DNA from: a virus | Reading direction: 5' to 3' (one strand) | UHGV virus genome: UHGV-1351982 | DNA: 64,000 nt | Part shown: positions 5,946 through 57,817 of the stretch, piece after piece | Layout of the letters: each line of letters starts with the position of its first letter | Numbering within the stretch: the first letter of the stretch is position 1 | Program-made: the position numbers and the translations under genes | Notes under the pieces: model-generated | What the model was told of the DNA's origin: nothing | The model's database searches: none | The model's input: the letters and a program-made list of their open reading frames with translations, nothing else

Positions 5946-5954
5946 ATAAATGTA

Positions 5955-5985: not shown

Positions 5986-6013
5986 TTTATATAAATTGAT
6001 GAGAGGATCAATT

Positions 6014-7320: not shown

Positions 7321-7351
7321 GTTGCTAAATGCTTAAATACTTGCTATAATA
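7321..7351 (+). promoter_or_regulatory. sigma70-type early promoter (TTGCTA -35, TGCTATAAT -10) inside the split ligase locus
   Basis: 17-bp spacer; conserved downstream box ATTTATATAAATTGATAAGGAAG. Confidence 0.7.
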
Positions 7352-7380
7352 TTTATATAAATTGATAAGGAAGAAATTTG

Positions 7381-8160: not shown

Positions 8161-8920
8161 ACTGAACTGGAACGTAGAAGGTGTAACCGAGTCTCTGAAA
8201 GCAAAAGCCACTGCTCTGGGTGTTGCTGTAATCTCTCAAGAACAAGTAGCTGCTATCGCTGCTGAACTGGCTACCGAGACTGGTAAAGACGTTACCGCTC
8301 GCTCTGTTGGCTCTAAGCTGCGTAAAGAAGGTTTCGAAGTACAGAAAGCAAACGAAGTACAGAAATCCCCGTGGACTCCTGAGCAGGAAGCTGAACTGGT
8401 TGATTTCCTGAACGCTCATGCTGGTCAGTATACTTACGCTGAAATCGCTGCTGCTGTAGCTGGTGGTCAGTTCGGTGCTAAGCAGGTACAGGGTAAGATC
8501 CTGAGTCTGGAAATGACTGCTTCTGTTAAGCCAACCGAAAAAGCTGCTGCTGTTCGTTCCTTCACTCCTGACGAAGAAACTGATTTCGTTAATCAGGTTG
8601 TTGCTGGTGCTACTATTGAAGCTATCGCTGCTCACTTCGGTCGCAATATTAAGCAGATCCGTGGTAAAGCTCTGAGTCTGCTTCGTGAAGGTCGTATCGC
8701 TGCTATGCCGGTACAGGAAACTTCAAGTGCTAAAACTCGTGAAGATCTGTTAGAAGGTCTGGATCTGGCTAACATGACTGTTGCTGAGATCGCTGAGAAA
8801 ACTGGTAAGTCTGAGCGCGGTGTTAAATCTATGCTGTCTCGTCGTGGTCTGGTTGCTAAGGACTATGATGGTGCCGCTAAGCGTGCTAAACTGGATGCAA
8901 AAGCTGCGGCTGCTGAATAA
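8153..8920 (+). CDS. DNA-binding protein with four tandem HTH-like repeats (possibly abundant early protein)
   Basis: 255 aa; four ~60 aa internal repeats each with an IAxxxG...K HTH-like core (e.g. TVAEIAEKTGKSERGVKSMLSRRG); host-optimal codon usage. Confidence 0.6.
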   Translation: MSKLNWNVEGVTESLKAKATALGVAVISQEQVAAIAAELATETGKDVTARSVGSKLRKEGFEVQKANEVQKSPWTPEQEAELVDFLNAHAGQYTYAEIAAAVAGGQFGAKQVQGKILSLEMTASVKPTEKAAAVRSFTPDEETDFVNQVVAGATIEAIAAHFGRNIKQIRGKALSLLREGRIAAMPVQETSSAKTREDLLEGLDLANMTVAEIAEKTGKSERGVKSMLSRRGLVAKDYDGAAKRAKLDAKAAAAE

Positions 8921-8937
8921 TCTGGTAAATTAAACCT

Positions 8938-8970
8938 AAGGGGAGGGGGCTATGCTCCTTCCCCTTTTTG
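8938..8970 (+). terminator. intrinsic terminator
   Basis: GC-rich hairpin (AAGGGGAGGGGG...CCTTCCCCTT) plus TTTTTG, directly after gene 8153-8920. Confidence 0.6.
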
Positions 8971-9002
8971 CATTTAGAAGGCACGAAAGCGTGCAAAGGA
9001 GA

Positions 9003-10475: not shown

Positions 10476-11362
10476 GTAGAATAACAGAACTACTTGATCT
10501 GAAAGGCATTGAATACAAAGACACAGGTGGGGACATCCTCATCTGTTGTCTCAATCCAGATCATGATGATAAACACCCAAGCTTGCGTATTGACCCTGAA
10601 TCAGGTATTATGCATTGCTTGAGCTGTGGCTTCGGTAGAGGAATACCGAGCATTTACCATTATTTTAATGAGACTCAGTACAGACAGTCACCAAGATTGT
10701 CACAAGTACGTAAAAAGATTTCAGAGATTAGGAATGGATCTACGAATCTTGCAATTCCTGAATCTGCTTACCTTTTCGAAGGTGATTTCCGAGGTATCAG
10801 TTCTAAGACCTTGAAGAAATATTTTGCTTTCCAACATCAAGCAGACTGGGAAGGCAGAATTGTATTCCCAATAACAGATGCTGTTGGACGCAATATCCTA
10901 TTCCTGGGACGTTCTATAAACAGTTCTGCCCCTCCTAAATACTTAGTAAAACCAAAACAAGTTTCACCACCAATTTTCCCTGTACGATATAATACACCAG
11001 TTCTTGTTCTAGTTGAAGGTATCTTTGATATGTTAAATCTAGAAGATAACGGTGTGGATTATGCTTCTTGCTGCTTTGGTACACATCAGTTTACATCTGA
11101 TAACATTGCCGATAAGTTCAGTCCTTACATTATTGCTGGAGTAAGAGTAGTAGTTATCCTATTAGATAATGATGCCTCTGGTAATAAAGCCGCACAAGCA
11201 CTAGCGAAGCTAATTCGTACAAAAACGCGTTTAACACCTGTAGTTGGTAACTTCCTTCTTCCAGAAGGCAAAGACCCAGGTGATTTAAATAAAGAAGAGA
11301 TCGATATGTTGGCTCAACGTATTGAAATTTTAGTTGCCGAATCGCTCAAAGATTTGGTATAA
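10472..11362 (+). CDS. DNA primase (DnaG-like: zinc finger + TOPRIM)
   Basis: 296 aa; zinc-binding CLNPDHDDKHPS...CLSCG; TOPRIM-like VLVEGIFDMLNL ... LLDNDASG; start overlaps helicase stop. Confidence 0.75.
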   Translation: MSRITELLDLKGIEYKDTGGDILICCLNPDHDDKHPSLRIDPESGIMHCLSCGFGRGIPSIYHYFNETQYRQSPRLSQVRKKISEIRNGSTNLAIPESAYLFEGDFRGISSKTLKKYFAFQHQADWEGRIVFPITDAVGRNILFLGRSINSSAPPKYLVKPKQVSPPIFPVRYNTPVLVLVEGIFDMLNLEDNGVDYASCCFGTHQFTSDNIADKFSPYIIAGVRVVVILLDNDASGNKAAQALAKLIRTKTRLTPVVGNFLLPEGKDPGDLNKEEIDMLAQRIEILVAESLKDLV

Positions 11363-17139: not shown

Positions 17140-18117
17140 ATGAGAATACTATTTAGTGCTGATCATCATATCAAATTAGGACAAGATAAAGTTCCAAAGG
17201 AATGGCAGAAGCGTCGCTTCCTGATGCTAGGAGAACGGTTAAATGACATATTCCATAATCATAACTGTGATCTGCATATTGCTGGTGGTGATATTCTTGA
17301 TGTTGCCGACCCATCGTCGGAAGAAATAGAACTTCTTGAACAGTTCATGTCAAGACTTGACCATTCAGGCAAGATCTTCACTGGGAACCATGAAATGTTA
17401 ACTAAAACTATTTCATGTCTGTATCATTATGCAGGAGTTATTAATAAAGTAACAAACGGAAATTGGGAAGTCATTACTAAACCATATCGTTCTCCTGAAT
17501 TTGATATTATCCCTTATGATGAAATCCACAAACCAAAGTGGAAACCATCTGAATCAAAACTATGTTTCACGCATGTTCGTGGTGAAATCCCTCCACATGT
17601 AAAACCAGAGATTGATCTAACGAGGTATAACTGTTATGACACTGTAATTGCTGGCGATTTACATTCTTATACTAATAGTCAAACTGTTGGTTCTACTAGA
17701 CTTCTTTATCCAGGATCTCCATTAACTACATCGTTCCATAGAGAAAGAACAAAAGGTACAAATGGTTGTTTTATCATTGATACCGACACATTAAAAGTAG
17801 AATGGATTGAACTTGGTGACTTACCACAACTGATTCGTAAAACAATCGGAGTTGGTGAGGAAATGGAGCCTAGTGACTATGACCGTGTAATTTATGAAGT
17901 CACTGGTGACGTCGTTCAGTTAAAGTCTATTAAAGATTCCGATCTCTTAGATAAAAAGATTAACCATCGAGTTACTAAAGATGCTAAGTTAAATCTTGTT
18001 GATCTTGATATGTTAGGCGAGCTTGAGCTTTACTTCCGTGAAGTTGAAAAGCTGTCTCAAGACGACATTGATAGAATCTTGGCTAGAGCTGCTAAATATG
18101 TCAAAGATTATAATTAA
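17140..18117 (+). CDS. D12: SbcD/Mre11-like nuclease (T5 D12-like)
   Basis: 325 aa; calcineurin-type phosphoesterase motifs (SADHH, GGDILD, GNHE); followed by SbcC-like gene. Confidence 0.8.
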   Translation: MRILFSADHHIKLGQDKVPKEWQKRRFLMLGERLNDIFHNHNCDLHIAGGDILDVADPSSEEIELLEQFMSRLDHSGKIFTGNHEMLTKTISCLYHYAGVINKVTNGNWEVITKPYRSPEFDIIPYDEIHKPKWKPSESKLCFTHVRGEIPPHVKPEIDLTRYNCYDTVIAGDLHSYTNSQTVGSTRLLYPGSPLTTSFHRERTKGTNGCFIIDTDTLKVEWIELGDLPQLIRKTIGVGEEMEPSDYDRVIYEVTGDVVQLKSIKDSDLLDKKINHRVTKDAKLNLVDLDMLGELELYFREVEKLSQDDIDRILARAAKYVKDYN

Positions 18118-19936
18118 GACACTAAAATTCAGCAACGTTATGTCTTACGGTAAGGATATAGTAATTCATTTCGATAAGAATCCAGTTACTCAGTTAATCG
18201 GAGGAAACGGTCTAGGGAAGTCCACTATTGCTACTGTTATCGAGGAATTGTTCTATAACAAGAACTCACGTGGTATCAAGAAGGACGCCCTATTCTCTTG
18301 GGGTTCTCCGAAGAAAGAGTATGATATGCACGCTTACTTCTCGAAAGATGAAGATGAGTATGAGTTGCATAAAGTAGTTAAATCAACTGCTAAGGTTACA
18401 CTGATTAAGAATGGAGAAGATATCAGTGGACACACAGCAACTCAAACGTACAAGATGATTGAAGAGATTATGGGTGGTGACTTCCAAACATTCACTAAAC
18501 TGATCTATCAATCTGTTGGTTCCAATCTAGACTTCCTCAAAGCAACTGATGCAACACGTAAAGCTTTTCTTGTTAATCTGTTCAATCAGGAACAGTATAA
18601 AGAGATGTCAGAAACTATTAAGGCTGATCGTAAAGAAGTGGCAAGTACGTTAAGTAACTTGCAAGGCCAGATGGCCGTAATTACGAAGATCCTCAACGGA
18701 AAAGGCAATCTCGGAAGTTTACAAGAGCCAGTTGAAGTTCCAGAGTTTGATGAAGAACCATTAGCACAAGAACTTACTGAATCGAAAATTAAGGCGGCAT
18801 TAGCCAAGTCACAAGAGGCTAATATTACTAAACTCCGTAATTTGGACAAAGCTGTACAAGTTGCCGAACAATCTTTCGAGCCTTTCAAAAATTTCCCTGC
18901 GCCCACTGACCAATCTGAAGAGATCTCAAGTGTTACGCGTGACCTAACGATTGTTACCTCACGTGCGGGAGAAGTCAAGAAACGTTATCAGAAGTTTAAG
19001 CAAGAGGCTTCAAATACTGAATGTCCTACTTGTGGTACGCATCTTGATACAACTGCTGCTCAAAAAGCAATGGATATGGCTAGAACAGAATATGATCCTC
19101 TGTTTAAAGAGAAACAATCTCTTGAAGCTACATTGGAGCAGTTAAAGAAAGAACAACTCGAGTACACTGCGTATACTAGAGCTAAAGATACTTTGGATAG
19201 GGCAGTAGCAGCTAGAGACGAGTTCAAAAATTCAATGAGTGATGCTTCTTTTGAAGAACTCAATGTGCAAATCCTACAGGTGCAAATCCGACAATTAGAA
19301 CAGGAAATCGCAGATGGACGTTCTAAAGTTGCAATTGCCAAAGAGCATAATGCAAATGTCGAATTAGCCAATGCAAAATATAAGGCGAAATTAGAACAGA
19401 TTGAGAAAGCTGAGGCAGAAATGTCTGAGATAACGTCCAAACTGGATGGAGTATCAGAAGCTGTTGCTGATCTTGATATTCTGATCACTGCATTGAAAAA
19501 TCTGGTAGGATATAAATTAGAGCATAGTGTGAAAGTATTTGAGGAATTGATTAATAAATATCTTTCTATTATGACTGGTGGTAAGTTCGCACTTGGATTT
19601 GAGCTTGATGAAACGAAATTACAAGTAGTAATCTTCAATGATGGGAACCGTACCAGTATGGAGAACTGCTCTACTGGTCAGCAAAGTAGAATTAACCTAG
19701 CAACTCTGTTAGCTATTCGAATGCTGTTAACATCTATTAGTAAAGTTAATATTAATCTTCTGTTCCTTGACGAAGTTATTAGCTTTATTGATACGAAAGG
19801 ACTTGATACTCTCGTTGAATTATTAAATGAGGAAGATAGTCTGAATTCTATCATTGTTTCTCATGGGCATACGCATCCATTAGCCCATAAGATTACTGTC
19901 AAAAAAGATGCAGAAGGATTTTCCTACTTAGAATAA
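18098..19936 (+). CDS. D13: SbcC/Rad50-like ATPase (T5 D13-like)
   Basis: Track ORF 18023-19936, ATG at 18098; Walker A GGNGLGKST, long coiled coil, CPTCG zinc hook, Walker B LLFLDE. Confidence 0.8.
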   Translation: MSKIIIKTLKFSNVMSYGKDIVIHFDKNPVTQLIGGNGLGKSTIATVIEELFYNKNSRGIKKDALFSWGSPKKEYDMHAYFSKDEDEYELHKVVKSTAKVTLIKNGEDISGHTATQTYKMIEEIMGGDFQTFTKLIYQSVGSNLDFLKATDATRKAFLVNLFNQEQYKEMSETIKADRKEVASTLSNLQGQMAVITKILNGKGNLGSLQEPVEVPEFDEEPLAQELTESKIKAALAKSQEANITKLRNLDKAVQVAEQSFEPFKNFPAPTDQSEEISSVTRDLTIVTSRAGEVKKRYQKFKQEASNTECPTCGTHLDTTAAQKAMDMARTEYDPLFKEKQSLEATLEQLKKEQLEYTAYTRAKDTLDRAVAARDEFKNSMSDASFEELNVQILQVQIRQLEQEIADGRSKVAIAKEHNANVELANAKYKAKLEQIEKAEAEMSEITSKLDGVSEAVADLDILITALKNLVGYKLEHSVKVFEELINKYLSIMTGGKFALGFELDETKLQVVIFNDGNRTSMENCSTGQQSRINLATLLAIRMLLTSISKVNINLLFLDEVISFIDTKGLDTLVELLNEEDSLNSIIVSHGHTHPLAHKITVKKDAEGFSYLE

Positions 19937-47233: not shown

Positions 47234-47340
47234 CGCTAATTTGACTTTTGCCAAATCTCATAAGATTACACATGAAGGTGTGCCCAGAGGTTCCCTAGAT
47301 GAGAATGAGTCTCATTACCGCCCCCTTACTTAGCAAGCTA

Positions 47341-47390
47341 ATAGTCACACCATGTTATCATTACACAGTGTGACTATTTTATTTTTAATT
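47341..47390 (+). terminator. intrinsic terminator after small-membrane-protein genes
   Basis: 10-bp stem ATAGTCACAC/GTGTGACTAT followed by TTTTATTTTT. Confidence 0.6.
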
Positions 47391-47391
47391 G

Positions 47392-48126
47392 TTAGGCAAC
47401 TTTTAATTTATCAATGAATTGTTGCGGTGTGGTACTATATTCCGCGCGTTCTTCCTCGGTCATACCTTCCCAACACATTTTTAAACGTTCGGCTAGGAAT
47501 TGATAATCGTTATCATCATCAAGCGATTCATCAATAAAGGTTTCACCGATCAATGTTACGCCGATTGATAGGATATCGTTAACGGCTTGAGCATCCAGCG
47601 TTTTAAATCCAGCACTTGCCGCCGCTGATAATACACCTTTATGATCATCAATCATTGTAAAATCAGCATTAGGATATAGCTGTTTAAACAGTTCAAAGTA
47701 ATAAGATTTATATACAGCGTCTTTACTGTGGTATATTTCGCTAACCTTATTTGCATCAAAGTATTTATGTAATGTATCGCGGGAAAATACGCGAATATTA
47801 CTATTTCCGCGCCCTCGCAAGCCTTGTTTGCGTAAATAAAAATAATCGCTTTTAGACATTAGGCGCGCGGTACAAATAATATTTAAAGTATTTGCATCAT
47901 TCATACATTGGCGCATATATTCAACCAATGGCAATAAAGAATCCTGCATAATTAAATCATGCTTGCAGGCTTCGCGGGAATATTTATTTAAATCTAAATT
48001 CCCATTATCATCAAAACAAGGCCCGACACGGTGCATTGAGTTAATGATTGTACCGTCTAAATCCCAAATCATAACGCGGGAAATATGCGGGAAAGTGCGG
48101 GTAATATTCATGTTGACTTGATTCAT
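47392..48126 (-). CDS. dmp: 5'-deoxyribonucleotidase, HAD-like (T5 Dmp-like)
   Basis: 244 aa; HAD motif I (VMIWDLDGTI); pre-early gene neighbourhood with A1/A2 homologues. Confidence 0.7.
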   Translation of the reverse strand: MNQVNMNITRTFPHISRVMIWDLDGTIINSMHRVGPCFDDNGNLDLNKYSREACKHDLIMQDSLLPLVEYMRQCMNDANTLNIICTARLMSKSDYFYLRKQGLRGRGNSNIRVFSRDTLHKYFDANKVSEIYHSKDAVYKSYYFELFKQLYPNADFTMIDDHKGVLSAAASAGFKTLDAQAVNDILSIGVTLIGETFIDESLDDDNDYQFLAERLKMCWEGMTEEERAEYSTTPQQFIDKLKVA

Positions 48127-48213
48127 TTGTTACATTCTCCATTTAAGGGATTTAGGTTAATTCAATCTTGCCAGCTAATTATATTGGATTAGCTGGCAAT
48201 GTTCAATTAACTA

Positions 48214-48606
48214 TTAATTAGTGAGGCCATACGCTAGCGCGTCACCAATAAAGCTAAGATCTTCACCATGTACGCTAGAACGAATCCCCGCGCAAGTGTA
48301 GACCATCGCGCTAGCTTCTGGATTGCAGACCGGACACGGCTTAACAACCGCAAACGCTAGACCGGATTTAAGCGCATCAATAATAATTGTTTGTACTGTT
48401 AAAGTATCAGCGTAAACACCTTTTGCTTTTGTATGGCTTGCCACTTTGCCGGTATCATAAGCAAAGGTAGTAACCTGCAAAACGTCGTTATAATTCAGCA
48501 AATCGAAATTAACTTGCCCCGCCTCGACGTGATAACGTTCGCCATTAGAATAAACTAGAACGATGGAAGAAGTAGCGCGGTCAAAAGGAATGCTTTGGTT
48601 TTTCAT
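48214..48606 (-). CDS. hypothetical protein
   Basis: 130 aa ORF in pre-early operon. Confidence 0.5.
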   Translation of the reverse strand: MKNQSIPFDRATSSIVLVYSNGERYHVEAGQVNFDLLNYNDVLQVTTFAYDTGKVASHTKAKGVYADTLTVQTIIIDALKSGLAFAVVKPCPVCNPEASAMVYTCAGIRSSVHGEDLSFIGDALAYGLTN

Positions 48607-48638
48607 GTTTATGACTCCAGATTATTTAATTACGGGAT

Positions 48639-48917
48639 TTATTGAAAAAATACATTTAAAGATAAATCAGTTTTACGAAAATATGTTTCGTCGCCGTCTT
48701 TCCTTTCTTGATTAAGGTAATCGCCTGTCATTACCTGAATAGAATCTTTTCCGAAAAAGATCATATTTTCGCCAATATTACTATCCCATACGGCGTACAT
48801 TCCCGCGTACATTCCACGGGTAACTAAATAAACGCAACTATCAAAAGACATTTCAGACCATGCAATATCTTCTAAACAATTGCTATCAGGGATAGATATA
48901 TTAATTTTACTAGCCAT
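48639..48917 (-). CDS. hypothetical protein
   Basis: 92 aa ORF in pre-early operon. Confidence 0.5.
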   Translation of the reverse strand: MASKINISIPDSNCLEDIAWSEMSFDSCVYLVTRGMYAGMYAVWDSNIGENMIFFGKDSIQVMTGDYLNQERKDGDETYFRKTDLSLNVFFQ

Positions 48918-48969
48918 TTAATAAACCTTTTATTAATGGCGGTATATTTCAACCGCCGATTAAATTTAA

Positions 48970-50634
48970 TTATGCAAAGAATTTACCGTTCTTAAAGTCA
49001 ATCAATGTTCTTTGACCGTTTGCATAGGTAATTAAATGCGTTTGCGTCCAGCTTGACGCGCCCACGTTGTAGCCCATATCAAGGGAACCAGCAACGCCAG
49101 CGGTATAAACGCCGCCGTAAATGCTAGCCGTATGAGTATGACCAGTGTTAAGGCGTCCCAACTTTTTAAACTGCTTAGGATTGCCCCGACTGCCGTTAAT
49201 GCCATTGTGACCATGTACGCCGCATTCAATGCCAGCGATTTTAAACGACTGGTCAGTAGTCAGGAAAATAGCGTTAAATTCGCAACCTGCGACACTACGC
49301 AAGGCGTAATCTAGCACGTTAAAAGTATCATCCTTTTCAGCAATAGCGGCGTATATAGCAGCGTTTAGACGGTGATACAATTCCGCGTTTGCGGGATCGT
49401 CTTTAATGTTAGCGTTACGATCATCTAACCAGCGGGATAAAGCTAAATCATGGTTAGATTCAACAATGATTGTTTGAGAGAAATCACGCTCCATTGATTC
49501 TAATACGCGTCCAGTGTCGATAAGATCATCTAGAACCTTGTCACGTCCTGCGGCGTACTGTTTAGCAAGGAATACACCACTAGCGCGGTTGTGATGGTTA
49601 CGCGATGTAAAATCATGCACATCATGAATAAACTGATATTTAGGCTTGAGAATATCAAGCAAGCTGTTTTCACTAGCCCATGAAGCAACGGCGCATTCAT
49701 CATCTAATTTTTCGGCGTGAATATCACCATATTGCAAGCCTAGAACATGATCGGACGTTTCAAAACATCCGGTAGGCATAGCGCAAACATTCAAATCATA
49801 AAACATTCCGCTTTCGTCCATCGTTTCAAGCTGACGAACAAAAAATTCGCCGTCGTCGTCAAATTCTACCAGCAAAGCGCCGAAATTATGTAAAGCCTCG
49901 GCCTTTTGTCCTGCCTTTTGCTGGATATAGTTTTTAAGCGTAGCCGTTCCGGTTGAATACATACGGCGCACTACTTCACCTTTTAACGCTGGCACACTTT
50001 CAGCGGTAATTTTAGCGTGACCAATTGCCAGACCTTCAATATTTAAAGCCGTGGCGGTTTCTGCGAATCCTGAAAGCGGATAGTCTGCCGTTGGTAACAC
50101 GTTAATTTCAGCCATGAAAGCAAAACGGCGATTATTTAAAAATACGTTTTTCTCGCAAATATATTTATTAAATGCGGGATCGTATTTAATGCCTTCGTTA
50201 CCTTCTCCATTCTGGAAGCCGTTTTTATTGTAAATGAATTTACTAACCAGCAATTCACCGCCGATATATTCAGCGAATTTTTCCAGACTTGCTAAAAAGT
50301 TTTTATGCGGGAAAGTATTATTTTGAATCGACGTTAGAATAAAACGGCGACCGGATTTAACTTCCCACTGTTCCACGGTACTAGAAACAATTCCCGCCGC
50401 TTCGGGGCGATCATCATTTTTAATCGCCTTTTCAGCTTTTGCCGCTTTCGGTTTTGCTGGCTTATTTGCTTCCAACCAATCGCAAATTGCGGTTGAATGT
50501 TTCGTTGTATCGTAAACAGCTTTTGATATATCGTCGCAAACTTCCAGCTTAGTAGCGCGTAAACGTTTACCGTAGAAATTAAAATCAGCGGCAAGTTTAA
50601 CGATCTGGGCTTGTTTTTCTGCGGAAATATTCAT
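48970..50634 (-). CDS. A1: A1-like pre-early protein, metallophosphoesterase fold
   Basis: 554 aa (T5 A1 recalled as ~556 aa); calcineurin-type motifs (SDH, GDIH, ESNHD, GHTHT). Confidence 0.8.
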   Translation of the reverse strand: MNISAEKQAQIVKLAADFNFYGKRLRATKLEVCDDISKAVYDTTKHSTAICDWLEANKPAKPKAAKAEKAIKNDDRPEAAGIVSSTVEQWEVKSGRRFILTSIQNNTFPHKNFLASLEKFAEYIGGELLVSKFIYNKNGFQNGEGNEGIKYDPAFNKYICEKNVFLNNRRFAFMAEINVLPTADYPLSGFAETATALNIEGLAIGHAKITAESVPALKGEVVRRMYSTGTATLKNYIQQKAGQKAEALHNFGALLVEFDDDGEFFVRQLETMDESGMFYDLNVCAMPTGCFETSDHVLGLQYGDIHAEKLDDECAVASWASENSLLDILKPKYQFIHDVHDFTSRNHHNRASGVFLAKQYAAGRDKVLDDLIDTGRVLESMERDFSQTIIVESNHDLALSRWLDDRNANIKDDPANAELYHRLNAAIYAAIAEKDDTFNVLDYALRSVAGCEFNAIFLTTDQSFKIAGIECGVHGHNGINGSRGNPKQFKKLGRLNTGHTHTASIYGGVYTAGVAGSLDMGYNVGASSWTQTHLITYANGQRTLIDFKNGKFFA

Positions 50635-50743
50635 AACTAATTCAACTCCTATAAAGGGATAAAGATTAAAGCTGGCAATATTGCCAAATATAACGCCTTG
50701 CCTGAAGTGAGGACAATTTAAAAGGCGTTATAATTTGCAACAT

Positions 50744-50968
50744 TTAATTAATCGGCATTAAACTAGAACAAAAGCCAAATACAATGCCAATTGTAAGAAA
50801 GATAATTGACATATATTTTTGAATGTTCGCGTTTTTGCGGAAATTATTTGCGGCGTAAACGTTATTAATTCCAATTATTGCCAGAATTGACCGCGTATAA
50901 TTCAGAATAAAAGCGGCGGCAATAATAAATAAACCTAAAATAAACGCTTCGCTAGGATAAAAGATCAA
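50744..50968 (-). CDS. small membrane protein
   Basis: 74 aa; two hydrophobic segments. Confidence 0.45.
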   Translation of the reverse strand: MIFYPSEAFILGLFIIAAAFILNYTRSILAIIGINNVYAANNFRKNANIQKYMSIIFLTIGIVFGFCSSLMPIN

Positions 50969-51018
50969 GATTATTCTCCTTTAAGGGATAGCGGGGAATA
51001 TTCCCCGCTAATTAAAAT

Positions 51019-51435
51019 TTATTCACCTGCGGCCTGTTTTACTTCCTCCGCTACGCCTAACAATTGCGCTACGGCGTCCAGCGTTTCCAGTTTTGCACTT
51101 TCCAGACTTGCCAAATCGTCGGCATCTTTTACAATGCCGCTATCAATGGCATGTTTAGCAATGACGCGCACATAGTGAGCTTTACGGACAGAGCTACCGC
51201 CGCCAACTTTACGCGGTTTATCGCTTTTCTGATAGGCTTTTGCACTGGCCAATTTAGAACGTACAGAAACAGGGGACGCAGCGCCAACGGCGGCGGCAAT
51301 TTCTTTTAAGCCGTCACTATTCGCAAACTCAATCCCGCTTTTAGCAACCATTTCAGAGTACATAGAAACAGCTTTTTCGGTGTTTTCTTCGTTCCAAGAG
51401 AATTTTGCGGTTTTTTCGGTTTTAACGTTAGACAT
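51019..51435 (-). CDS. A2: A2-like pre-early protein (putative DNA-binding)
   Basis: 138 aa; immediately upstream of A1 homologue in transcript order; size consistent with T5 A2. Confidence 0.6.
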   Translation of the reverse strand: MSNVKTEKTAKFSWNEENTEKAVSMYSEMVAKSGIEFANSDGLKEIAAAVGAASPVSVRSKLASAKAYQKSDKPRKVGGGSSVRKAHYVRVIAKHAIDSGIVKDADDLASLESAKLETLDAVAQLLGVAEEVKQAAGE

Positions 51436-51535
51436 AATTTAATACTCCATTCAATTATTAATTAAGGGATTATGATTAACTAATGTTAATCCATATATTC
51501 CCCATATTTCAGGGGAATATAAAAGTAACACTAAT

Positions 51536-51787
51536 TTATGCTATAGCTTGCCATTTATCATCTTTCTGAATGATCTTTACAACGTCGCCAGATTTAACGC
51601 GAACATTATAAATAGGCTTGCTGTTGTTACTGCGTTCCGTTTCCGCATAGACCGCTTCAATCTTATCAAAGGGATCAAGCGCCGCACCTTTGATACGTTC
51701 GGCTTTTCCGGTTAATTCATCAGTTTTAGTTACAAAAGGAATGAAAACAGATTGACCTACTTTCGGCGCGGTAATAACGTTTTGCAT
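51536..51787 (-). CDS. hypothetical protein
   Basis: 83 aa ORF in pre-early operon. Confidence 0.5.
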   Translation of the reverse strand: MQNVITAPKVGQSVFIPFVTKTDELTGKAERIKGAALDPFDKIEAVYAETERSNNSKPIYNVRVKSGDVVKIIQKDDKWQAIA

Positions 51788-51898
51788 TTTTAATACTCCG
51801 GTTTATTGGGGATTATTCCACAATAGCGCCTCGATACTTTGAAACGCTATTAGATTATAATCCGCTAGGAGTTAGCCTAAACATTACCATTATCCAAA

Positions 51899-51944
51899 TT
51901 TTTAAAGAGCAGTTACTACGGGGAACATCTTAAAACCTATCGGC
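51899..51944. repeat. composite repeat A+B upstream-flanking a small basic ORF
   Basis: 13-mer TTTTTAAAGAGCA (A) plus 25-mer GGGGAACATCTTAAAACCTATCGGC (B); partner at 52204-52243 has B inverted and A direct. Confidence 0.55.
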
Positions 51945-51951
51945 TAGCGTG

Positions 51952-52170
51952 TCAAGCGTTTTTTAAACTTTTTTCGATTTGATGTGAGTTATATAAATCA
52001 ATCATTATATTACGCCACACCATTTCCAGACCTTGCTGCTTACCTTTCTTGTATTGCTTGAATCTGTATTTTACAGATCGTTGCGCTACTGTCAACAAAT
52101 TTTTTGTTCTGCTATCCAGTGGGCTAGCAGGTTTTGCACTAATCACTAAAGCGTTTTTTGATTTGATCAT
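51952..52170 (-). CDS. small basic protein (possible DNA-binding)
   Basis: 72 aa, Lys/Arg-rich; flanked by 25-bp inverted repeats. Confidence 0.45.
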   Translation of the reverse strand: MIKSKNALVISAKPASPLDSRTKNLLTVAQRSVKYRFKQYKKGKQQGLEMVWRNIMIDLYNSHQIEKSLKNA

Positions 52171-52203
52171 TATCGTCGATTCCTTATAATGTATAAGTTT
52201 ACC

Positions 52204-52243
52204 GCCGATAGGCTTTAAGATGTTCCCTAGTTTTTAAAGAGCA
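52204..52243. repeat. composite repeat B'(inverted)+A
   Basis: GCCGATAGGCTTTAAGATGTTCCC is the reverse complement of B (2 mismatches), followed by a direct copy of TTTTTAAAGAGCA. Confidence 0.55.
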
Positions 52244-52560
52244 TGGCGGTAAACTTCCCCGCCGTGTAATCTTGCGTTTCGTTTCCGTCCCGCCGTCCTA
52301 CGAGATAAATAATAGGGGATTCCCGAAAATGGCGCAACCTTATTTTTGTAAAGAAACGTAAAGAAAACCACTACCCGCACCACGGCAAGCGGCGCACTAA
52401 GTTTAATGAAACAGGCGCGCGAATAACACTAAAACAACCACTTTAGCAAGTAATTTTTTCATTTATATCTGCTCTAGGGTACTTGACAAAATCTAAAATC
52501 CTCGTGGTGAGGTTTTCTCGGTGTACCCCTTATGATTGCCTATCTTTTCCTTTGATGCGC

Positions 52561-52587
52561 TTAGAATCGCTTACAGAGCGTTTTAGA
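52561..52587. repeat. ~27-bp direct repeat, copy 1 (TTAGAATCGCTTACAGAGCGTTTTAGA)
   Basis: Near-identical copy at 56302-56329. Confidence 0.6.
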
Positions 52588-52799
52588 CCCTGTTAATAAC
52601 TTATACAAAAAGCAAAAATGAAATTTAATGAGTTATCCACTTGATTTTTCAAAAAAGTATTTTCTGCTGTTATTTTTCATTGACAAATAAGTTTAGACGT
52701 GCATTGATTGGTTAGCAGACTAACAATCGCTAGGATAATAATCACGCTGGTGGATTGTAACAGCCGAAACAGTTAGCAGACTATTAATACTCTAAAAAC

Positions 52800-52834
52800 C
52801 TATTAGCCAACTAACTATTTCATATTATATAATA
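52800..52834 (+). promoter_or_regulatory. orphan promoter-like element (TATAAT at 52828-52833) in a non-coding region
   Basis: Matches the conserved -10 plus downstream box (TATAATATACTTATAAATTAAAGAGA) but no ORF follows for >400 bp; -35 weak. Confidence 0.35.
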
Positions 52835-52904
52835 TACTTATAAATTAAAGAGAAATAATAACTATAAGAAACTATCGGCTAAGTGAGAACCACTATCATT
52901 TAGG

Positions 52905-52974
52905 TTATTCACAAAGTTATCCACAGCACAAAATAACTTGACGCAATAGGCGACGTTTTGGCGACTTATCCACA
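52905..52974. promoter_or_regulatory. DnaA-box cluster (TTATTCACA 52905-13, TTATCCACA 52917-25, TTATCCACA 52966-74)
   Basis: Two perfect and one near-consensus 9-mer matching the E. coli DnaA box TTATCCACA, inside an ~1 kb non-coding region. Confidence 0.6.
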
Positions 52975-52994
52975 GACTTATGTACAGGTTATCC

Positions 52995-53014
52995 TACTGT
53001 ATAAATATACAGGG
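52995..53014. promoter_or_regulatory. LexA-type SOS-box-like palindrome (TACTGTATAAATATACAGGG)
   Basis: CTGT-N8-ACAG with AT-rich core, next to the DnaA boxes. Confidence 0.5.
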
Positions 53015-53261
53015 TAGAATGGTAGCAGTAACAACCGCAATCAAATTTAAGCGGCCTAGAACGCGCTACACGGCGTTTTCTCACTGCTACCCTTATTATA
53101 ATAAAGCCTTGTGTACGCTTACAGAGAGCTAGAAATAGAAAACGCGCGGTTATCATAAAAACAGGCAGTAGGCAAGGAATAAAAAACCTTTTCTTTTTTC
53201 TTGCCCATAGTGAACAAATATCTATATCATTCACTCACCGATTAACGAGGGAGGCAAAGAA

Positions 53262-54281
53262 ATGTCTACTGTAAGAATTGCAGTGCCAGCAAACGCAACT
53301 ATTGTTAAAGGTAGTTTGCGCAACCTGCTAGATGGTAGTAGTGCGGCAAGTATTCAGCACACCGCTACTATTGTAGAAAAGATTCACGATGAAATTTTAG
53401 ACAATAATGATACTCATTATTCAGTTGATGATTTCACGCTATTACTAGACCAGACAAGGGCGCTAGTAATTTTCAACCGTGATTATCACATTTTCCGTAA
53501 TAGTCGGGGAACTGATATTGATTTTATCATTGTTGGTTATAGTGAGTCTCATAGTGGTTACATTGCGCGATTATATAACGTGCAAGAAAAGGAGCAGGTA
53601 ACAGCAACAAAAGTAAATAATATCCGGCTGGATAGTGTCGGATCGTTATTAAATAGTATCTGGCGTGAATTATCCTCAAGCTATAAAGGTGCGGATAGTG
53701 ACGCAATCGAAACAACTGGCGTATTGTGTTTTGAAAAGTCAACGGGTAACATGTTGATCCCTAGCGATTATTTAGGGTATGGGAATGAATCAAACGTTGC
53801 AAACGCTGGATTTACACTTTTCCCGCTTGACAATGTAACAAAACAGGCTGTAAACTCTCAAACTTCAAGCGCAATTGCGCAAACTACTGAAAATAAAGGA
53901 AATAACACTATGTCTAAAGTAACCGCTATCGTTGCCGCTAATAAATCCGCCGCCGCTACCGCTGCAAAACTGGAAGCGGGTAAAGTAGCACTAACTCAGC
54001 TTACAAAAGTAGCGGCTAAAGCCCTGCCTTCTGGTATGGCTGGCATGTTCGCTAAACAGTATTTAGATACTCCGGTCGGGCGCGTTGTTGTTGCCAACTT
54101 GTTAAATCTGGCAATCGAACAATACGCACCGAATAACCAGAAAGCGCGAATTGTTGCTAAAGCCGCAATGGATGCCGCAATGCTGGAAGTGGTACAGAGT
54201 TTCAATATTTCTGAAATGATCGACAAGGCAATCGAGGGAATCAACATTGATGCTTTGACTGCTAATATTTCAGAAGAGTAA
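53262..54281 (+). CDS. hypothetical pre-early protein
   Basis: 339 aa; GAGGGAGG RBS; Ala-rich C-terminal half; intrinsic terminator downstream. Confidence 0.6.
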   Translation: MSTVRIAVPANATIVKGSLRNLLDGSSAASIQHTATIVEKIHDEILDNNDTHYSVDDFTLLLDQTRALVIFNRDYHIFRNSRGTDIDFIIVGYSESHSGYIARLYNVQEKEQVTATKVNNIRLDSVGSLLNSIWRELSSSYKGADSDAIETTGVLCFEKSTGNMLIPSDYLGYGNESNVANAGFTLFPLDNVTKQAVNSQTSSAIAQTTENKGNNTMSKVTAIVAANKSAAATAAKLEAGKVALTQLTKVAAKALPSGMAGMFAKQYLDTPVGRVVVANLLNLAIEQYAPNNQKARIVAKAAMDAAMLEVVQSFNISEMIDKAIEGINIDALTANISEE

Positions 54282-54289
54282 TAATAACA

Positions 54290-54325
54290 AGCGGGAATTA
54301 ATTTTCCCGTTTTCTTCCCTTTTAG
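54290..54325 (+). terminator. intrinsic terminator
   Basis: Hairpin CGGGAA-TTAATT-TTCCCG followed by TTTTCTTCCCTTTT. Confidence 0.65.
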
Positions 54326-54339
54326 TTAGGAGACTAATT

Positions 54340-54831
54340 ATGTTTGGTAACAGAAATTATGGCAACCCTATTGAAGCACGATCCCTTAATCATGACGCAA
54401 TTGTATTCACTCATGCGTCTACCGGTTATTGTGGATCAGATGGGAATGATTATCATTTCGTTCCCGCTGGTGACGATATTGATGATCTATGTAATGAGGC
54501 AGGTTATGAAAATGCTTGCTCTTATGGTCTAGAAGTTATTGAAGTAGACGACGGCGAATATGAGGATAATGATAATATTGAATGCTCCGCTTATCATTAT
54601 CAGTTAAGTGAATCAGGTTGTTATATTGGCGGCGGCGATCCTATTAATTCCATCACTGAAATAATTATTGAAAATGGTGGCGTTTCGCTGAATGGTAACA
54701 AGGCGTTACTATATGCAAACCGATTAAAGCAACTTGTATATATTCCTGATGGGAAAGAATGGGAAGAATACAACGTTCTAATTGCAGAATTGAAAAGCTG
54801 TTTCGGCGTGGAAGTGGTAGAAATAGTCTAA
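54340..54831 (+). CDS. strongly acidic protein (candidate DNA mimic / anti-restriction)
   Basis: 163 aa; roughly 30 Asp+Glu against about 7 Lys+Arg, several Cys; AGGAG RBS; own terminator. Confidence 0.6.
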   Translation: MFGNRNYGNPIEARSLNHDAIVFTHASTGYCGSDGNDYHFVPAGDDIDDLCNEAGYENACSYGLEVIEVDDGEYEDNDNIECSAYHYQLSESGCYIGGGDPINSITEIIIENGGVSLNGNKALLYANRLKQLVYIPDGKEWEEYNVLIAELKSCFGVEVVEIV

Positions 54832-54845
54832 TGTAAAGTTTTGTA

Positions 54846-54875
54846 AAGGTCGCCCTAATCGGCGGCCTTTTTTGT
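54846..54875 (+). terminator. intrinsic terminator
   Basis: Hairpin GGTCGCC-CTAAT-CGGCGGCC followed by TTTTTTG. Confidence 0.65.
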
Positions 54876-54938
54876 TATAATGCCTTTACACCGAAACGGT
54901 GGATTGAAAATTTTCCCTGATTTCTAGGAGGCGTTAAA

Positions 54939-55169
54939 ATGGTTGCTTTCTCTTCTTCTGACTCCCTTTTCACTGGTAAAGGTTGGGTATCTAATCGCTG
55001 GATCATTGATCAAATGGTTTCGGAATTTGGGATTGGTAAAACTTATGTTACCATTCAGGCGCTTTATGATAATGACAAGATTGACCAGCAAACCGCCGGA
55101 TTTTTGCTGGATACGCTGAAAGCGGAACATTGCACTAAAAAGCAAGCGGCAAAAATTGTTTTAATGTAA
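54939..55169 (+). CDS. hypothetical protein
   Basis: 76 aa; TAGGAGG RBS 7 nt upstream. Confidence 0.55.
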   Translation: MVAFSSSDSLFTGKGWVSNRWIIDQMVSEFGIGKTYVTIQALYDNDKIDQQTAGFLLDTLKAEHCTKKQAAKIVLM

Positions 55170-55216
55170 TTAATAACGGGGCGTTACTTTCGCCCCTCAT
55201 TCCCTTACTAGGAGTT

Positions 55217-55435
55217 ATGCAAATGTTAAAGAATGTTTCCCTTGCCCGTTCTAAAGGTTTTAAGCTGGTGGATGTTAACACCTTCGAGCGTCCAGATTGT
55301 AAAATCGAATATGTAGCACGCAACAAAAACCCTTTCCGTGTTACAGAAAAGAAATTTGACAAGCGCGGCAATTTGATAGCCGAAACGGTTAAACACTTTG
55401 CTACTTTTTACGCTGCTTTTCGTGGGGTATTATGA
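55217..55435 (+). CDS. hypothetical protein
   Basis: 72 aa; TAGGAG RBS. Confidence 0.55.
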   Translation: MQMLKNVSLARSKGFKLVDVNTFERPDCKIEYVARNKNPFRVTEKKFDKRGNLIAETVKHFATFYAAFRGVL

Positions 55436-55544
55436 GATCCTTATATATTGCTCTAGCGTTTGCTACTGTTGGCGTTGTATGCTCATTCGCCGCATTTGTT
55501 TTAAAAATGTACATGATATTTTCCCAGCTTTAGGAGGTTGACAA

Positions 55545-55892
55545 ATGGTAATTTATGAGGGCAATCGTTTTGTTGCTAATTGCCGTCCGGCATTGTTAGC
55601 AAACTATTTAAATCAGCTTTCACCAGTTTATAAAGGCGTGGTTAATATCTATGAAGGCAAAGCACATTATAAAATTTCTGCCGTTGTCGCTCGCGAGCTT
55701 GCCTTTCAGTTTCTTACTTTTAACTCATGCGATATTCAGGTTATGGGTGAGCCATTAGTCGCAGAAAATGAAAATGAATTTATTGACATTTTCCGCAAAG
55801 TATGTACAGAGCGCCTGATTATGAAGGGCGCGTATATTCAATCAACCGCTGAAAGTATTGAAACAGCGTTTCGAAAAATTGTAAATGAATAG
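55545..55892 (+). CDS. hypothetical protein
   Basis: 115 aa; TAGGAGG RBS. Confidence 0.55.
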   Translation: MVIYEGNRFVANCRPALLANYLNQLSPVYKGVVNIYEGKAHYKISAVVARELAFQFLTFNSCDIQVMGEPLVAENENEFIDIFRKVCTERLIMKGAYIQSTAESIETAFRKIVNE

Positions 55893-56018
55893 CTGGTGGC
55901 GAAAAACACAAAGCCATAAATCTAATAATACCGCTGGGAAACATTCCCAGCGTTTACGATTTGGTAATGGCTGCGTAATGATATTGATAATCATCCTCAT
56001 TCTAGGAGCGATGGCGTT

Positions 56019-56213
56019 ATGAGTGATAAAATTGTTGTAACTAAAACTACTGTTACCGTTGATACTTTCTTTGTGCCTGATACGCTGGAAAATCGGCAAT
56101 TAGTCGAGCGTGGCGATTATGACAAAGTGATATATGATGGGGATGGATACTATCAACATTTGGTAGACTCCTACGGCGAAAGCGAAAAGATCACACATCG
56201 ACTACCAGACTAA
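56019..56213 (+). CDS. hypothetical protein
   Basis: 64 aa; TAGGAG RBS; terminator downstream. Confidence 0.5.
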   Translation: MSDKIVVTKTTVTVDTFFVPDTLENRQLVERGDYDKVIYDGDGYYQHLVDSYGESEKITHRLPD

Positions 56214-56216
56214 TAA

Positions 56217-56250
56217 TAACGGGGCGCAACTATCGGCCCCGTCTTTTCTG
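56217..56250 (+). terminator. intrinsic terminator closing the pre-early + cassette
   Basis: Hairpin ACGGGGC...GCCCCGT followed by CTTTTCT. Confidence 0.55.
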
Positions 56251-56301
56251 GCCTTCCTCAAATTTCCCCTTATTAAAATACCTCTTCCAAAAATAAACGC
56301 G

Positions 56302-56329
56302 TTAGAATGCGTTACAGAGCGTTTTAGAG
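56302..56329. repeat. ~27-bp direct repeat, copy 2
   Basis: TTAGAATGCGTTACAGAGCGTTTTAGA, matching 52561-52587. Confidence 0.6.
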
Positions 56330-56358
56330 CTATATTAGAGTTATTCACTACGCAGGAA

Positions 56359-56378
56359 TACTGTATAAATATACAGTA
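56359..56378. promoter_or_regulatory. LexA-type SOS-box-like palindrome (TACTGTATAAATATACAGTA)
   Basis: Near-perfect match to the LexA consensus TACTGTATATATATACAGTA; second copy, in inverted module. Confidence 0.55.
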
Positions 56379-56398
56379 GAATAATCTGTTGATAAGTC

Positions 56399-56468
56399 TG
56401 TGGATAACGCCTCAAAATCGCTAGGATTTTGTCAAGTCAAATCGTGCTGTTAATAAACCTGTGGATAA
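56399..56468. promoter_or_regulatory. DnaA boxes in inverse orientation (TGTGGATAA at 56399-56407 and 56460-56468)
   Basis: Two perfect reverse-complement DnaA 9-mers; with the LexA-like box they form an inverted copy of the 52.9-53.0 kb module. Confidence 0.6.
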
Positions 56469-56499
56469 CTTAAATAACAGTGTTTCTCACTTCGCTTTG

Positions 56500-56640
56500 T
56501 AAATGCGAGTCATTCTCATTATCATTCGCGTTTCCCTTCCTAAATGCAAATCATTCTCATTCGTATTCCGGTAGTCAAATGATAACTATTCTCATTCGCA
56601 TTCAACTTCTCAAATGCGAATCAATCTCATTATCATTCGC
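56500..56640. repeat. four tandem ~30-bp dyad-symmetric iteron-like repeats
   Basis: AAATGC(G/A)A(G/A)TCATTCTCATT(ATCATTCGC) units at about 56500, 56542, 56575 and 56610, each with an internal GCGA..TCATTCGC inverted repeat. Confidence 0.6.
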
Positions 56641-56680
56641 ATTTCGGCAGGCAGGGCATTTTCTATTTGCCCTGCGCTTT

Positions 56681-57281
56681 TGTGCAAATCCGACATTTGC
56701 CCCCACGGATTACGTGCCAGCGTGTATGTGCGAATCCGACAATTTTTGGTAGTGTGCAAATCCGACCCGAAATATTTTTATAGTGTGCGAATCCGACAAT
56801 GAATTTCCCTAAAAACTCCAGCAATCTCGAACTGCGATCGAATCCTGTGGGATATGCGCAAATCCGACATGAGTTTGCTAGGAGACAGATTTATGGTTTC
56901 AGGAATATTTTTGTGACTTCGATGAGAGGGTGTGTAATTGTGTGAGTTTGGGGAGAAGTGCGAATCCGATGAGGTTTTGGGAGGAACTATGAGAGGAGCA
57001 GCGGTGTTGGTGCTTTAGCACCGATTTGCTGCGTTTTTGGGGATAATGTGAGATGTTTTGGGATAATTGGGCGTGGGGTGAGATAAAGTGAAATTTTATT
57101 AGTTAAATGGGGCAAAATCGCTTGACAAGTGAAAATTCCTGTGTCCCTAAAAACTCAGGCAATCATGGGCCTTCGGCCCGAAATAATGCTGCTATTTTCA
57201 GGAGATTATGTGCTCATGAAAACTTAGGCAATTGTGCAAATCCGACCAGTTTTTAAACTTATATCAGTGTGCAAATCCGAT
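56681..57281. repeat. eight dispersed copies of the 13-mer GTGCRAATCCGA(C/T)
   Basis: Copies at about 56681, 56727, 56754, 56784, 56855, 56958, 57232 and 57266, in a region with no convincing ORF. Confidence 0.65.
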
Positions 57282-57817
57282 AGCAATTTCCAGAAATGTG
57301 TTTTCAAAAAATGTTGTCTAGAAATAACCGCCCTCCCCATAACCGCCCTGTATTAACCGCCTATTGCTGGAGTTTCTAGGAACATGAAAACCGCCTGAGT
57401 TAATGGGAGTTTTCCTAGAAACTTAGGAGTCTAGAAGAAAGTGTTGTGCCATCCTAGCAGATGAGCGGCAACAGGTGTATCATCTTGAACGTTAATTTAT
57501 CTATTTAACAGTATTAGTTTTTATATAAGTATAAGATCCCCAAGGGTTCTCATATAGAGCTTTGCCCCCGCCAGAAGGTCTCGTGATGTTTCTAGTAATC
57601 TTTATTAAATTACTTGTTGACTTGTCCTGTCGCTCCGTAACCTACGCTACAAGTCAGTAATTTAAGATTCCTGAACCACCACACCTTCTGTGTGGCAACT
57701 CTAAATGGTTAATTCTATTAACTCATAGAGTTATGATAACATACATTTAGCTATCTGTCAACGAGAGTTTGTATCTGAGTCTCGGTACAGGTATTGTGCA
57801 CCGAGACATGCAGGATC

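Follow-up and report, generated by a model that had tools for sequence, protein, structure and literature searches.

A non-coding repeat field in a T5-like phage genome as the predicted counterpart of the T5 injection-stop region

Why does the DNA of bacteriophage T5 halt after 8% of the genome has been transferred, and how does it restart? The question dates from the 1960s. The T5 literature places the stop at about 7.9–8.3% of the genome and states that A1 and A2 are both required to resume transfer. A 2026 preprint reports that A2 is essential in T5 and is needed together with A1 for second-step transfer. Two 2026 papers place the stop in a repeat- and palindrome-rich region and describe its mechanism as poorly understood.

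A field of repeats that raises the same question occurs in the virus genome UHGV-1351982, of which a stretch of 64,000 nucleotides was analysed, referred to as the window. An initial annotation of the window had described four dyad units, a hairpin and eight short boxes between 56480 and 57300, and had offered three options for them: a replication origin, a partition-like site, or the injection-stop region of a T5-like phage. The elements themselves are all found where they had been placed. What kind of locus do they form, and can its parts be assigned a role?

Identity of the repeat field

A megablast search with positions 56200-57500 matched 518 phage records, nearly all of them T5-like phages (Demerecviridae) of Salmonella, Escherichia and Klebsiella. 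The best match shows 91% identity, and at least 80% of the query is covered in 365 of the records. Searching plasmids with the repeat field gave no match. The complete genome of Salmonella phage vB_SenS-3 carries an annotated terminal repeat at 1-9455; its first nucleotide aligns to window position 47282, and the window sequence runs on unbroken to the left of this point. The window can thus be read as a T5-like phage assembled with a single copy of its terminal repeat (about 47282-57147), the ends of which are placed for UHGV-1351982 by homology to the annotated ends of its relatives. The homologues of the pre-early genes dmp, A1 and A2 all lie inside the repeat, with the repeat field downstream of them. 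A1 and A2 are considered only as candidate trans-acting partners of the field; Pfam and PDB searches with both proteins yielded no match supporting a binding mode.

The field aligns with T5 positions 9149-10499 at a mean column identity of 85% over 1.3 kb. Record AY543070 annotates T5 9140-10149 as a misc_feature 'injection stop signal (iss)', and record AY587007 annotates each T5 repeat singly, including direct repeats C and D, palindrome J and nick 1. The features of the latter map one-to-one onto the window, and every named T5 feature has a counterpart there. The name 'Repeat Region 3' is found in Davison 2020 (10.1101/866236), where it covers an inverted-repeat module, the dyad repeats and nine D repeats; the region is described there as 'extremely conserved', its neighbouring ORFs not being so, and is proposed as the iss. 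For T5, this assignment has two grounds, the shear point (about 9.6 kb, 7.9%) and conservation.

Judged by its sequence, the field is the orthologue of T5 Repeat Region 3, the non-coding module that holds the iss at the inner end of the terminal repeat, and here, too, it overruns that end into unique DNA. Both the region and the iss are reportedly also to be found in work by Heusterspreute et al. from 1987. Because the T5 features map one-to-one, the third of the three options, the injection-stop region, was the right one. The element is therefore already known: a published and annotated feature of T5, seen here in another T5-like phage, and no new type of element.

Only the extent needs to be redrawn. 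The repeats do fall inside 56480-57300, but the module reaches about 120 bp further left (56359-56468). It measures about 1.2 kb in T5 terms and sits inside a 1.6-kb ORF-free gap, and is thus larger than had been noted. Four points had been missed: this left extension, the full length of the gap (1604 nt, 56214-57817), the position of the terminal-repeat end within the field, and the presence of the T5 nick motif in the hairpin.

The absence of a convincing ORF, on the other hand, is borne out. The longest ORF in the field has a GTG start, encodes 90 amino acids and overlies the repeats. When the window is compared with 18 relatives, most indels, including all seven relative to T5, have lengths that cannot be divided by three, so that the field does not appear to encode small proteins. 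The curated records of T5 and BF23 carry no CDS over the region. Some GenBank records list up to 8 'hypothetical proteins' there, and the ORF calls differ between records; since most indels break the frame, we regard them as over-calls. An Rfam search at E <= 1 returned only a 17-bit match to PhrS, far under the threshold of that family, and a tRNA search of the field found none. With a GC content of 0.407, as compared with 0.399 for the window, the field is not AT-rich.

Architecture of the module

Table 1 Features of the module and its genomic setting in the window, with T5 names where these apply
Feature	Position	Strand	Remarks
dmp homologue	47392-48126		inside terminal repeat
A1 homologue (DNA transfer protein / predicted metallophosphatase)	48970..50634	-	PHROG 1745, E = 1e-243
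A2 homologue (predicted DNA-binding protein)	51019..51435	-	PHROG 1725 'DNA binding protein', E = 6e-50
Partner module (T5 Repeat Region 2, IRC-spacer-IRD)	52878..53012	-	inverted LexA-like palindrome and DnaA boxes
Stem-loop and T-run (T5 palindrome C / putative terminator)	56218..56250 (palindrome C 56218-42)	+	T5 9194-9213
Perfect 20-bp palindrome TACTGTATAAATATACAGTA (T5 palindrome D)	56359..56378		
IRD' and IRC' with their DnaA boxes	56361-56491		from the T5 feature map
Two DnaA-box pairs (T5 IRD'-spacer-IRC')	56387..56468	+	variant box, 3 bp, consensus TGTGGATAA
Four dyad units (T5 direct repeat C copies 1-4, palindromes E-I)	56501..56644		half-sites AAATGMGAAT
Hairpin GCAGGGCA-N9-TGCCCTGC (T5 palindrome J)	56651-56675; with nick motif to 56677	+	
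Putative nick motif CCCTGCGC ("Major single-stranded nick 1, 7.9%" in T5)	56670-77		overlaps the hairpin
Cluster A, six TGTGCRAATCCGAC (T5 direct repeat D)	56681..56970	+	starts 56681, 56727, 56753, 56784, 56855, 56957
21-mer TCCCTAAAAACTCMRGCAATC, first copy	56806..56826	+	
G-rich repeats TTTTGGGGATAA / TTTTGGGATAA (T5 direct repeat A copies 2 and 3)	57034..57072	+	
Near-invariant block with predicted repeat end and hairpin GGGCCTTCGGCCC (57167-79)	57122..57205	+	
Cluster B, two TGTGCRAATCCGAC copies, 35 nt apart	57233..57281	+	85 and 120 nt past repeat end
Right edge of Repeat Region 3 equivalent	57324..57423		ATAACCGCCCT x2 and AACCGCC, inverted 21-mer, 12-nt inverted repeat

The features of the module and of its surroundings are collected in Table 1. 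At its left edge, a stem-loop closes the rightward pre-early genes; the T5 equivalent is annotated as a putative rho-independent terminator. Further to the right lies a perfect palindrome with a CTGT-N8-ACAG core. Such sites occur only three times in the 64 kb, and two of them are this palindrome at 56359 and its copy at 52995. It agrees at 19 of 20 positions with TACTGTATATATATACAGTA, which we take to be the gamma-proteobacterial LexA/SOS-box consensus, and is conserved in relatives infecting Klebsiella, Erwinia and Vibrio. In the T5 iss literature no mention of a LexA-type box at palindrome D was found.

The palindrome is followed by two DnaA-box pairs (56387-95/56399-407 and 56448-56/56460-68). 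Together with the palindrome they belong to a 135-nt inverted repeat, in which the left part of the module pairs with a partner module 3.3 kb leftward. In total the window holds four consensus boxes of this type, distributed over the two modules and paired at 3-bp spacing. The inverted-repeat structure with its DnaA boxes has been described for T5 by Davison 2020 (10.1101/866236).

The four dyad units that come next are 27-33 nt long, start at 56501, 56542, 56577 and 56612 (spacing 41/35/35 nt) and share 74-93% identity with the reference copy. Inversion is seen both between units and within them, and the fourth has perfect 10-nt arms, AAATGCGAAT/ATTCGCATTT. Folded as single-stranded DNA, the stretch 56495-56680 shows much greater stability than shuffled versions of itself (z of -5.2). 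When one mismatch is allowed in the half-site, 9 of its 23 matches in the whole window lie within the 144-bp dyad block. The units are also present in Klebsiella phage IME260 and Erwinia phage KEY. A dyad-like motif at 47299-47316, 18 nt from the left genome end and 83-89% complementary to units 1-2, was set aside as chance or lineage-specific, because the left ends of T5 and BF23 do not have it. In the neighbourhood of the hairpin, the block TTTGCCCTGCGCTTTTGTGCAAATCCGACA is nearly invariant in 19 relatives; for both T5 and BF23, a transfer halt and a single-strand nick at CCCTGCGC in virion DNA have been reported.

No other motif of the region is as constrained as the 14-mer, which is recognisable from Escherichia to Vibrio phages. 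Its eight GTGCRAATCCGA boxes in the field (56682, 56728, 56754, 56785, 56856, 56958, 57234 and 57269) are all on the + strand, and seven are exact, the box at 56856 (GCGC...) having one mismatch. At up to one mismatch the window holds 10 such boxes where 0.40 are expected, a number reached in none of 100 shuffles. The repeats are kept in related phages: across 21 phages from Tequintavirus, Epseptimavirus, Sugarlandvirus (IME260) and Erwinia phage KEY, 177 boxes were counted, every one of them in the same orientation. The resulting motif, T-GTGC-R-AATCCGA-C(A), carries 1.2-2.0 bits at each of 14 core positions, while its immediate flanks mostly stay below 0.7 bits, and the spacing is near-fixed over these phages (46/26/31/71-81/25-35 ... 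35). A CRISPR array had been dismissed from the start, and rightly so: instead of regular identical repeats with uniform spacers, the boxes are 26-276 nt apart and the DNA between them is itself conserved between phages.

How widely is this motif distributed? Among 2.9 million viral contigs of IMG/VR, scanned for two boxes 10-40 nt apart, 47 stretches were found. All except three lie on contigs of about 104-123 kb, a T5-like size; the remaining three come from metagenomic contigs 47-96 kb in length, and one of these carries genes for homologues of two proteins of the window. Outside the field, the window has two extra boxes at 19265 and 19280, inside an SbcC-like gene; 27 of 28 close relatives retain both these boxes and the coding sequence around them. 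Their conservation tracks that of the coding sequence and is uninformative as additional evidence. It was also considered whether the 14-mer could be a DnaA box, its 5' half TGTGCAAAT fitting TGTGNAWAA at 8 of 9 positions. This reading fails: neither the G variant nor the Vibrio form AGTGCG retains the match, and DnaA does not account for the half AATCCGAC, which is fully conserved.

The boxes fall into two clusters. Cluster A belongs to the terminal repeat, whose end follows the boxes of this cluster at distances of 467 to 191 nt; cluster B lies outside the repeat and should consequently stand only beside the left repeat in virion DNA. The IMG/VR contig of T5 shows the outer box pair on the left copy, and the right copy stops 246 nt after box 6. 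Between the clusters, the right end of the terminal repeat is predicted at 57147/57148, after CCTGTGTCCC and before TAAAAACTCAGGCAATC. A comparison with the terminal-repeat ends of T5-like phages, as the initial annotation had suggested, places their annotated ends inside the field and at this very point: those of T5, BF23, EscoHU1 and Sepoy coincide at the identical nucleotide (after CTGTGGMTC, before TAAAAACTCAGGCAA), and those of Stitch and vB_SenS-3 are 3-4 nt away. The predicted end is contained in the second copy of the 21-mer (57144-57164), and a third, inverted copy is found at 57362-57379. The G-rich repeats lie to the left of the predicted end, and repeats of the TTGGGGATAA type take their place in IME260, KEY and the Vibrio phage VCPH. 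The right edge of the module includes the 12-nt inverted repeat AGTTTCTAGGAA/TTCCTAGAAACT, and its ATAACCGCCCTCCC repeats are also present in KEY.

Transfer stop, genome-end cutting and other readings

What could such a module do? We think it likely that the field, as the orthologue of Repeat Region 3, is a composite cis-acting, protein-binding platform that marks the stop of first-step transfer and also contains the cut site for the genome end. Support for this explanation comes from the homology, the element map, the position of the repeat end, the non-coding nature of the field, its conservation and the orientation bias of the boxes. Read from left to right, the platform would begin with sites for host factors, namely the LexA-like palindrome and the two DnaA-box pairs. 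Four palindromic, operator-like dyads would follow, suited to a dimeric protein for which A2 is a candidate, and then the hairpin with its putative 7.9% nick motif. Beyond it, the one-directional 14-mer array, which would be read by some protein, brackets the predicted terminal-repeat end. During first-step transfer, the left-end copy of the platform would be the last DNA to enter, and bound proteins, or the structure of the platform itself, may hold the DNA at the pause. The remaining DNA would then be let in by A1 and A2, whose genes lie on the part already inside the cell. In packaging, the same block would serve as the cut site for the right genome end.

The individual parts of this scheme differ in strength. 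The host factors in question would be DnaA and probably LexA. For the dyads and the 14-mer, we infer that they bind protein and that they have a share in the stop beyond packaging alone; in the T5 literature, neither an experiment making any repeat of the field necessary for the stop nor a protein binding the dyads or the 14-mer was found. The arrangement of the 14-mer array around the cut site would fit packaging at least as well as a role in the stop.

This leads to the strongest alternative, which is not mutually exclusive with the platform. Here, the 14-mer clusters, the three 21-mer copies and the invariant block would together form a packaging signal, a terminase pac/cos-like site for the right end, and the presence of this signal 8% from the left end would be a by-product of terminal-repeat duplication, which is compatible with the explanation given above. 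We regard packaging as the main function as possible, in a tentative sense. It would account well for the right end of the module, where the repeat ends of four phages fall on one nucleotide within a near-invariant block and where this nucleotide sits in one of the three 21-mer copies. The block has six boxes at 191-467 nt on one side and two or three at 85-258 nt on the other, a bracket that is kept in IME260 and KEY, and all boxes face the same direction, as a polar process would predict. DNA is generally packaged by a last-in-first-out rule; as the left end enters cells first, the right end would have been packaged first. Cluster A would then be located on the first-packaged DNA, placed like cosB of lambda. 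However, the literature on T5-like phages yielded no data on DNA binding or cleavage by terminase, and the left genome end, which differs between Tequintavirus and Epseptimavirus, has no obvious motif in common with the right one. Packaging would moreover leave the DnaA sites, the LexA-like sites and the nick-site hairpin unexplained.

Could the left part of the module be sufficient for the stop? In the model of Davison 2020 (10.1101/866236), membrane-bound DnaA holds its boxes until A1 and A2 cut the DNA free. The stop would be due solely to the DnaA-box pairs at 56387-56468 and the inverted set at 52905-52974, bound by membrane-associated host DnaA, with the dyads and 14-mers playing no part. 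The four consensus boxes, their two modules and the 3-bp pairing are all in place, as this published model would have it, and the pairs are conserved out to Vibrio phages. We nevertheless think it unlikely to be the whole answer. A 2026 paper describes a viable T5 mutant without hegG-017, which keeps Repeat Region 3; by its coordinates, this deletion should remove Repeat Region 2 and with it the second DnaA-box module. It is also not obvious how a protein on DNA that has already entered would halt further entry, and the most information-rich repeats are left without a role, as Davison himself states (section 4.10).

A rather doubtful extension would merge the stop signal and the packaging signal into one element. 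Read by the DNA-translocating machinery or by some conserved protein of the phage, the polar 14-mer array might direct the end cut in packaging and act as a brake on the DNA in ejection. The first-step DNA may in addition be held not by DnaA alone but also by host LexA, bound at the two near-consensus SOS boxes. The array spans about 590 bp in the window and up to about 730 bp in T5, which presumably is close to the length of DNA that the T5 tail could hold, going by our own estimate from tail dimensions.

A replication origin, at which DnaA boxes and iteron-like repeats would start phage DNA replication, is highly improbable. The DnaA boxes do adjoin repeated units that look like protein-binding sites, which lends the field a formal resemblance to iteron origins. 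But the four flanking ORFs scanned match only DUF or unknown-function families and none of an initiator type, the field has neither AT-richness nor similarity to plasmids, and in T5 the origins were mapped near the genome centre, with the replication genes on second-step DNA (Davison 2020, 10.1101/866236). The origin option of the initial annotation is thus not supported. The same holds for its partition option: that the repeats are a centromere-like site, translated small ORFs or a non-coding RNA gene is scarcely credible, for although plasmid centromeres have direct-repeat arrays and several GenBank records call proteins here, the phage family is virulent, no plasmid match or Rep/Par-type family turned up in the plasmid search and the four flanking ORFs scanned, the calls are inconsistent and frame-broken, and no Rfam match exceeds its threshold.

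For the old question of the T5 halt, the comparison sharpens what has to be explained: the polarity of the boxes and their bracket round the genome end, the deep conservation of the box, and a LexA-like palindrome. The 14-mer, its bracket of the cut site and the LexA-type box represent defined targets for the genome-engineering tools that already exist for T5.

Relation to T5 and to other known systems

The closest comparison is T5 itself. The order of elements is shared throughout: terminator, palindrome D, IRD'-spacer-IRC', four copies of direct repeat C, palindrome J with the nick-1 motif, direct repeat D, direct repeat A, the repeat end, and again direct repeat D. Shared as well are the 46/26/31 spacing in the first box cluster and the way the module straddles the boundary between terminal repeat and unique DNA. 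The differences are in the details. The window has 8 boxes as compared with 9 in T5: T5 boxes 6 and 9 are absent from the window, whereas the window box at 56958, common to its Epseptimavirus relatives, is absent from T5. The dyad half-site reads AAATGCGAAT in the window and AAATGAGAAT in T5. Compared with T5, the window has a dyad block shorter by 28 nt and a palindrome J with a longer loop.

With growing distance the layout is retained better than the sequence. In Sugarlandvirus IME260 and Erwinia phage KEY, only 26-44% of the query lies in alignable pieces, yet the order is kept: LexA-like palindrome, DnaA pairs, dyads, CCTGCGC, boxes, G-rich repeats, end block, boxes. Among Vibrio phages, for which the comparison is based on VCPH, a recognisable version of the layout persists. 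VCPH keeps the terminator, a AAATGAGAAT palindrome, an identical CTGTATAAATATACAG palindrome, two DnaA-box pairs and the TTGGGGATAA repeats; about ten GCAACTGTTGCGGT units stand where the enterobacterial dyads would be, and its boxes have the related form AGTGCGRAWYCKA. In the circularly written record of Vibrio phage Quinn, a matching palindrome/DnaA module is found beside dmp.

oriC and iteron origins share with the field the clustering of DnaA boxes beside repeated units. They differ from it in having an adjacent initiator gene and an AT-rich unwinding element, and here the whole module is duplicated, being inside the terminal repeat.

Parallels among terminase sites are the R-sites of lambda cosB, the hexamers of P1 pac and the short repeats flanking the terminal repeat of T7. 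As in pac/cos sites, a physical genome end is flanked by repeated motifs, by homology in the case of this phage. The likeness would consist in the setting of the genome end: it lies within a block of conserved sequence, and the short repeated motifs to its left and right all have the same polarity. In contrast to lambda cosB, P1 pac and T7, the T5-like module has boxes of 14 nt, distributed over about 0.6-0.75 kb, and combines them with host-factor sites and a nick-motif site.

A LexA-like palindrome and other short repeats

The repeat field, orthologous to Repeat Region 3 of T5, opens with a palindrome (T5 'palindrome D') that agrees at 19 of 20 positions with the gamma-proteobacterial consensus of the LexA SOS box. 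Its core is found again at 52995-53012, within the inverted partner module, and sites of the form CTGT-N8-ACAG occur only three times across the 64-kb window. Sequence comparison showed that the LexA-like palindrome is kept in T5-like phages of Klebsiella, Erwinia and Vibrio. LexA is nowhere named in Davison 2020 (bioRxiv 10.1101/866236), and a literature search found no paper combining bacteriophage T5, LexA and first-step transfer.

Repeat searches added two further families of short elements. One is a 21-mer that is missing from the repeats annotated in AY587007; the terminal repeat is inferred to end within its second copy. The other lies close to the right border of the field, and Erwinia phage KEY also carries such ATAACCGCCCTCCC repeats at the equivalent place. 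At the other end of the terminal repeat, 47281|47282 is the junction where right-end unique DNA meets its left end. The repeat, about 9.9 kb long, is present as one copy in the assembly, and the window therefore represents a collapsed or permuted form of the linear genome.

Features in and around the repeat field and elsewhere in the window
Feature	Position	Orientation	Basis or context
Two boxes, 15 nt apart: GTGCAAATCCTA, GTGCAAATCCGACAA	19265-19291		inside SbcC-like gene 18023-19936
Palindrome TACTGTATAAATATACAGTA	56359-56378	palindromic	sequence match to LexA SOS-box consensus
21-mer TCCCTAAAAACTCMRGCAATC, three copies	56806-56826; 57144-57164; 57362-57379	third inverted	repeat search
ATAACCGCCCT, two copies, plus AACCGCC	57324-57362		repeat search
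Near-consensus sigma-70 promoter and conserved non-coding stretch	57505-57761	minus	sequence, alignment, folding

A candidate small RNA beside the repeat field

Promoter and folding analyses point to a candidate small RNA that has so far escaped annotation, in the interval separating the T5.018 homologue from the repeat field. The promoter, TTGACA-17-TATCAT plus a TG, matches the consensus at 11 of 12 positions and is unchanged in T5 and the aligned relatives, three excepted. Downstream, non-coding sequence is highly conserved over about 200 nt, and RNAalifold (-63 kcal/mol) folds it as one long imperfect hairpin with 3 compensatory pairs. With no more than 7 distinct sequences, from 2 clades, to draw on, the covariation signal is thin. 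The 3' end of this stretch is a hairpin with a U-rich tail; searches for Rfam and tRNA matches to the region returned none.

Boxes outside the array

The 14-mer box (T5 direct repeat D) is not confined to the field. The pair in the SbcC-like gene codes for VQILQVQIRQ; its second member is retained in 27 of 28 close relatives while synonymous sites nearby vary, but these sequences diverge too little to separate selection on a DNA motif from coding conservation. An additional box, exact or with one mismatch, was found in T5 (position 3653 of locus L012) and in other loci including L005 (3653), L007 (3651), L009 (3652) and L011 (3655). It sits within the next gene (T5.019 homologue), some 350 nt upstream of where the T5.018 homologue starts, and points the same way as the array. 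At this position the window shows no match, even with one mismatch allowed.

Variation of the module among relatives

In two T5-like IMG/VR contigs (L008 and L011), box cluster A is split between boxes 3 and 5 by about 515 bp of inserted DNA, which widens the distance between boxes to 616 and 626 nt. The insertion carries a 200-codon stop-free stretch, so the array can evidently accommodate an extra gene, probably a mobile one. Vibrio phage VCPH retains the flanking LexA-like/DnaA module and box-like motifs. Where enterobacterial phages have the dyad repeats, it carries about ten tandem GCAACTGTTGCGGT-type units at 17-18 nt spacing (L028, 3630-3800), a layout which suggests that the dyad array is the lineage-specific part of the module.
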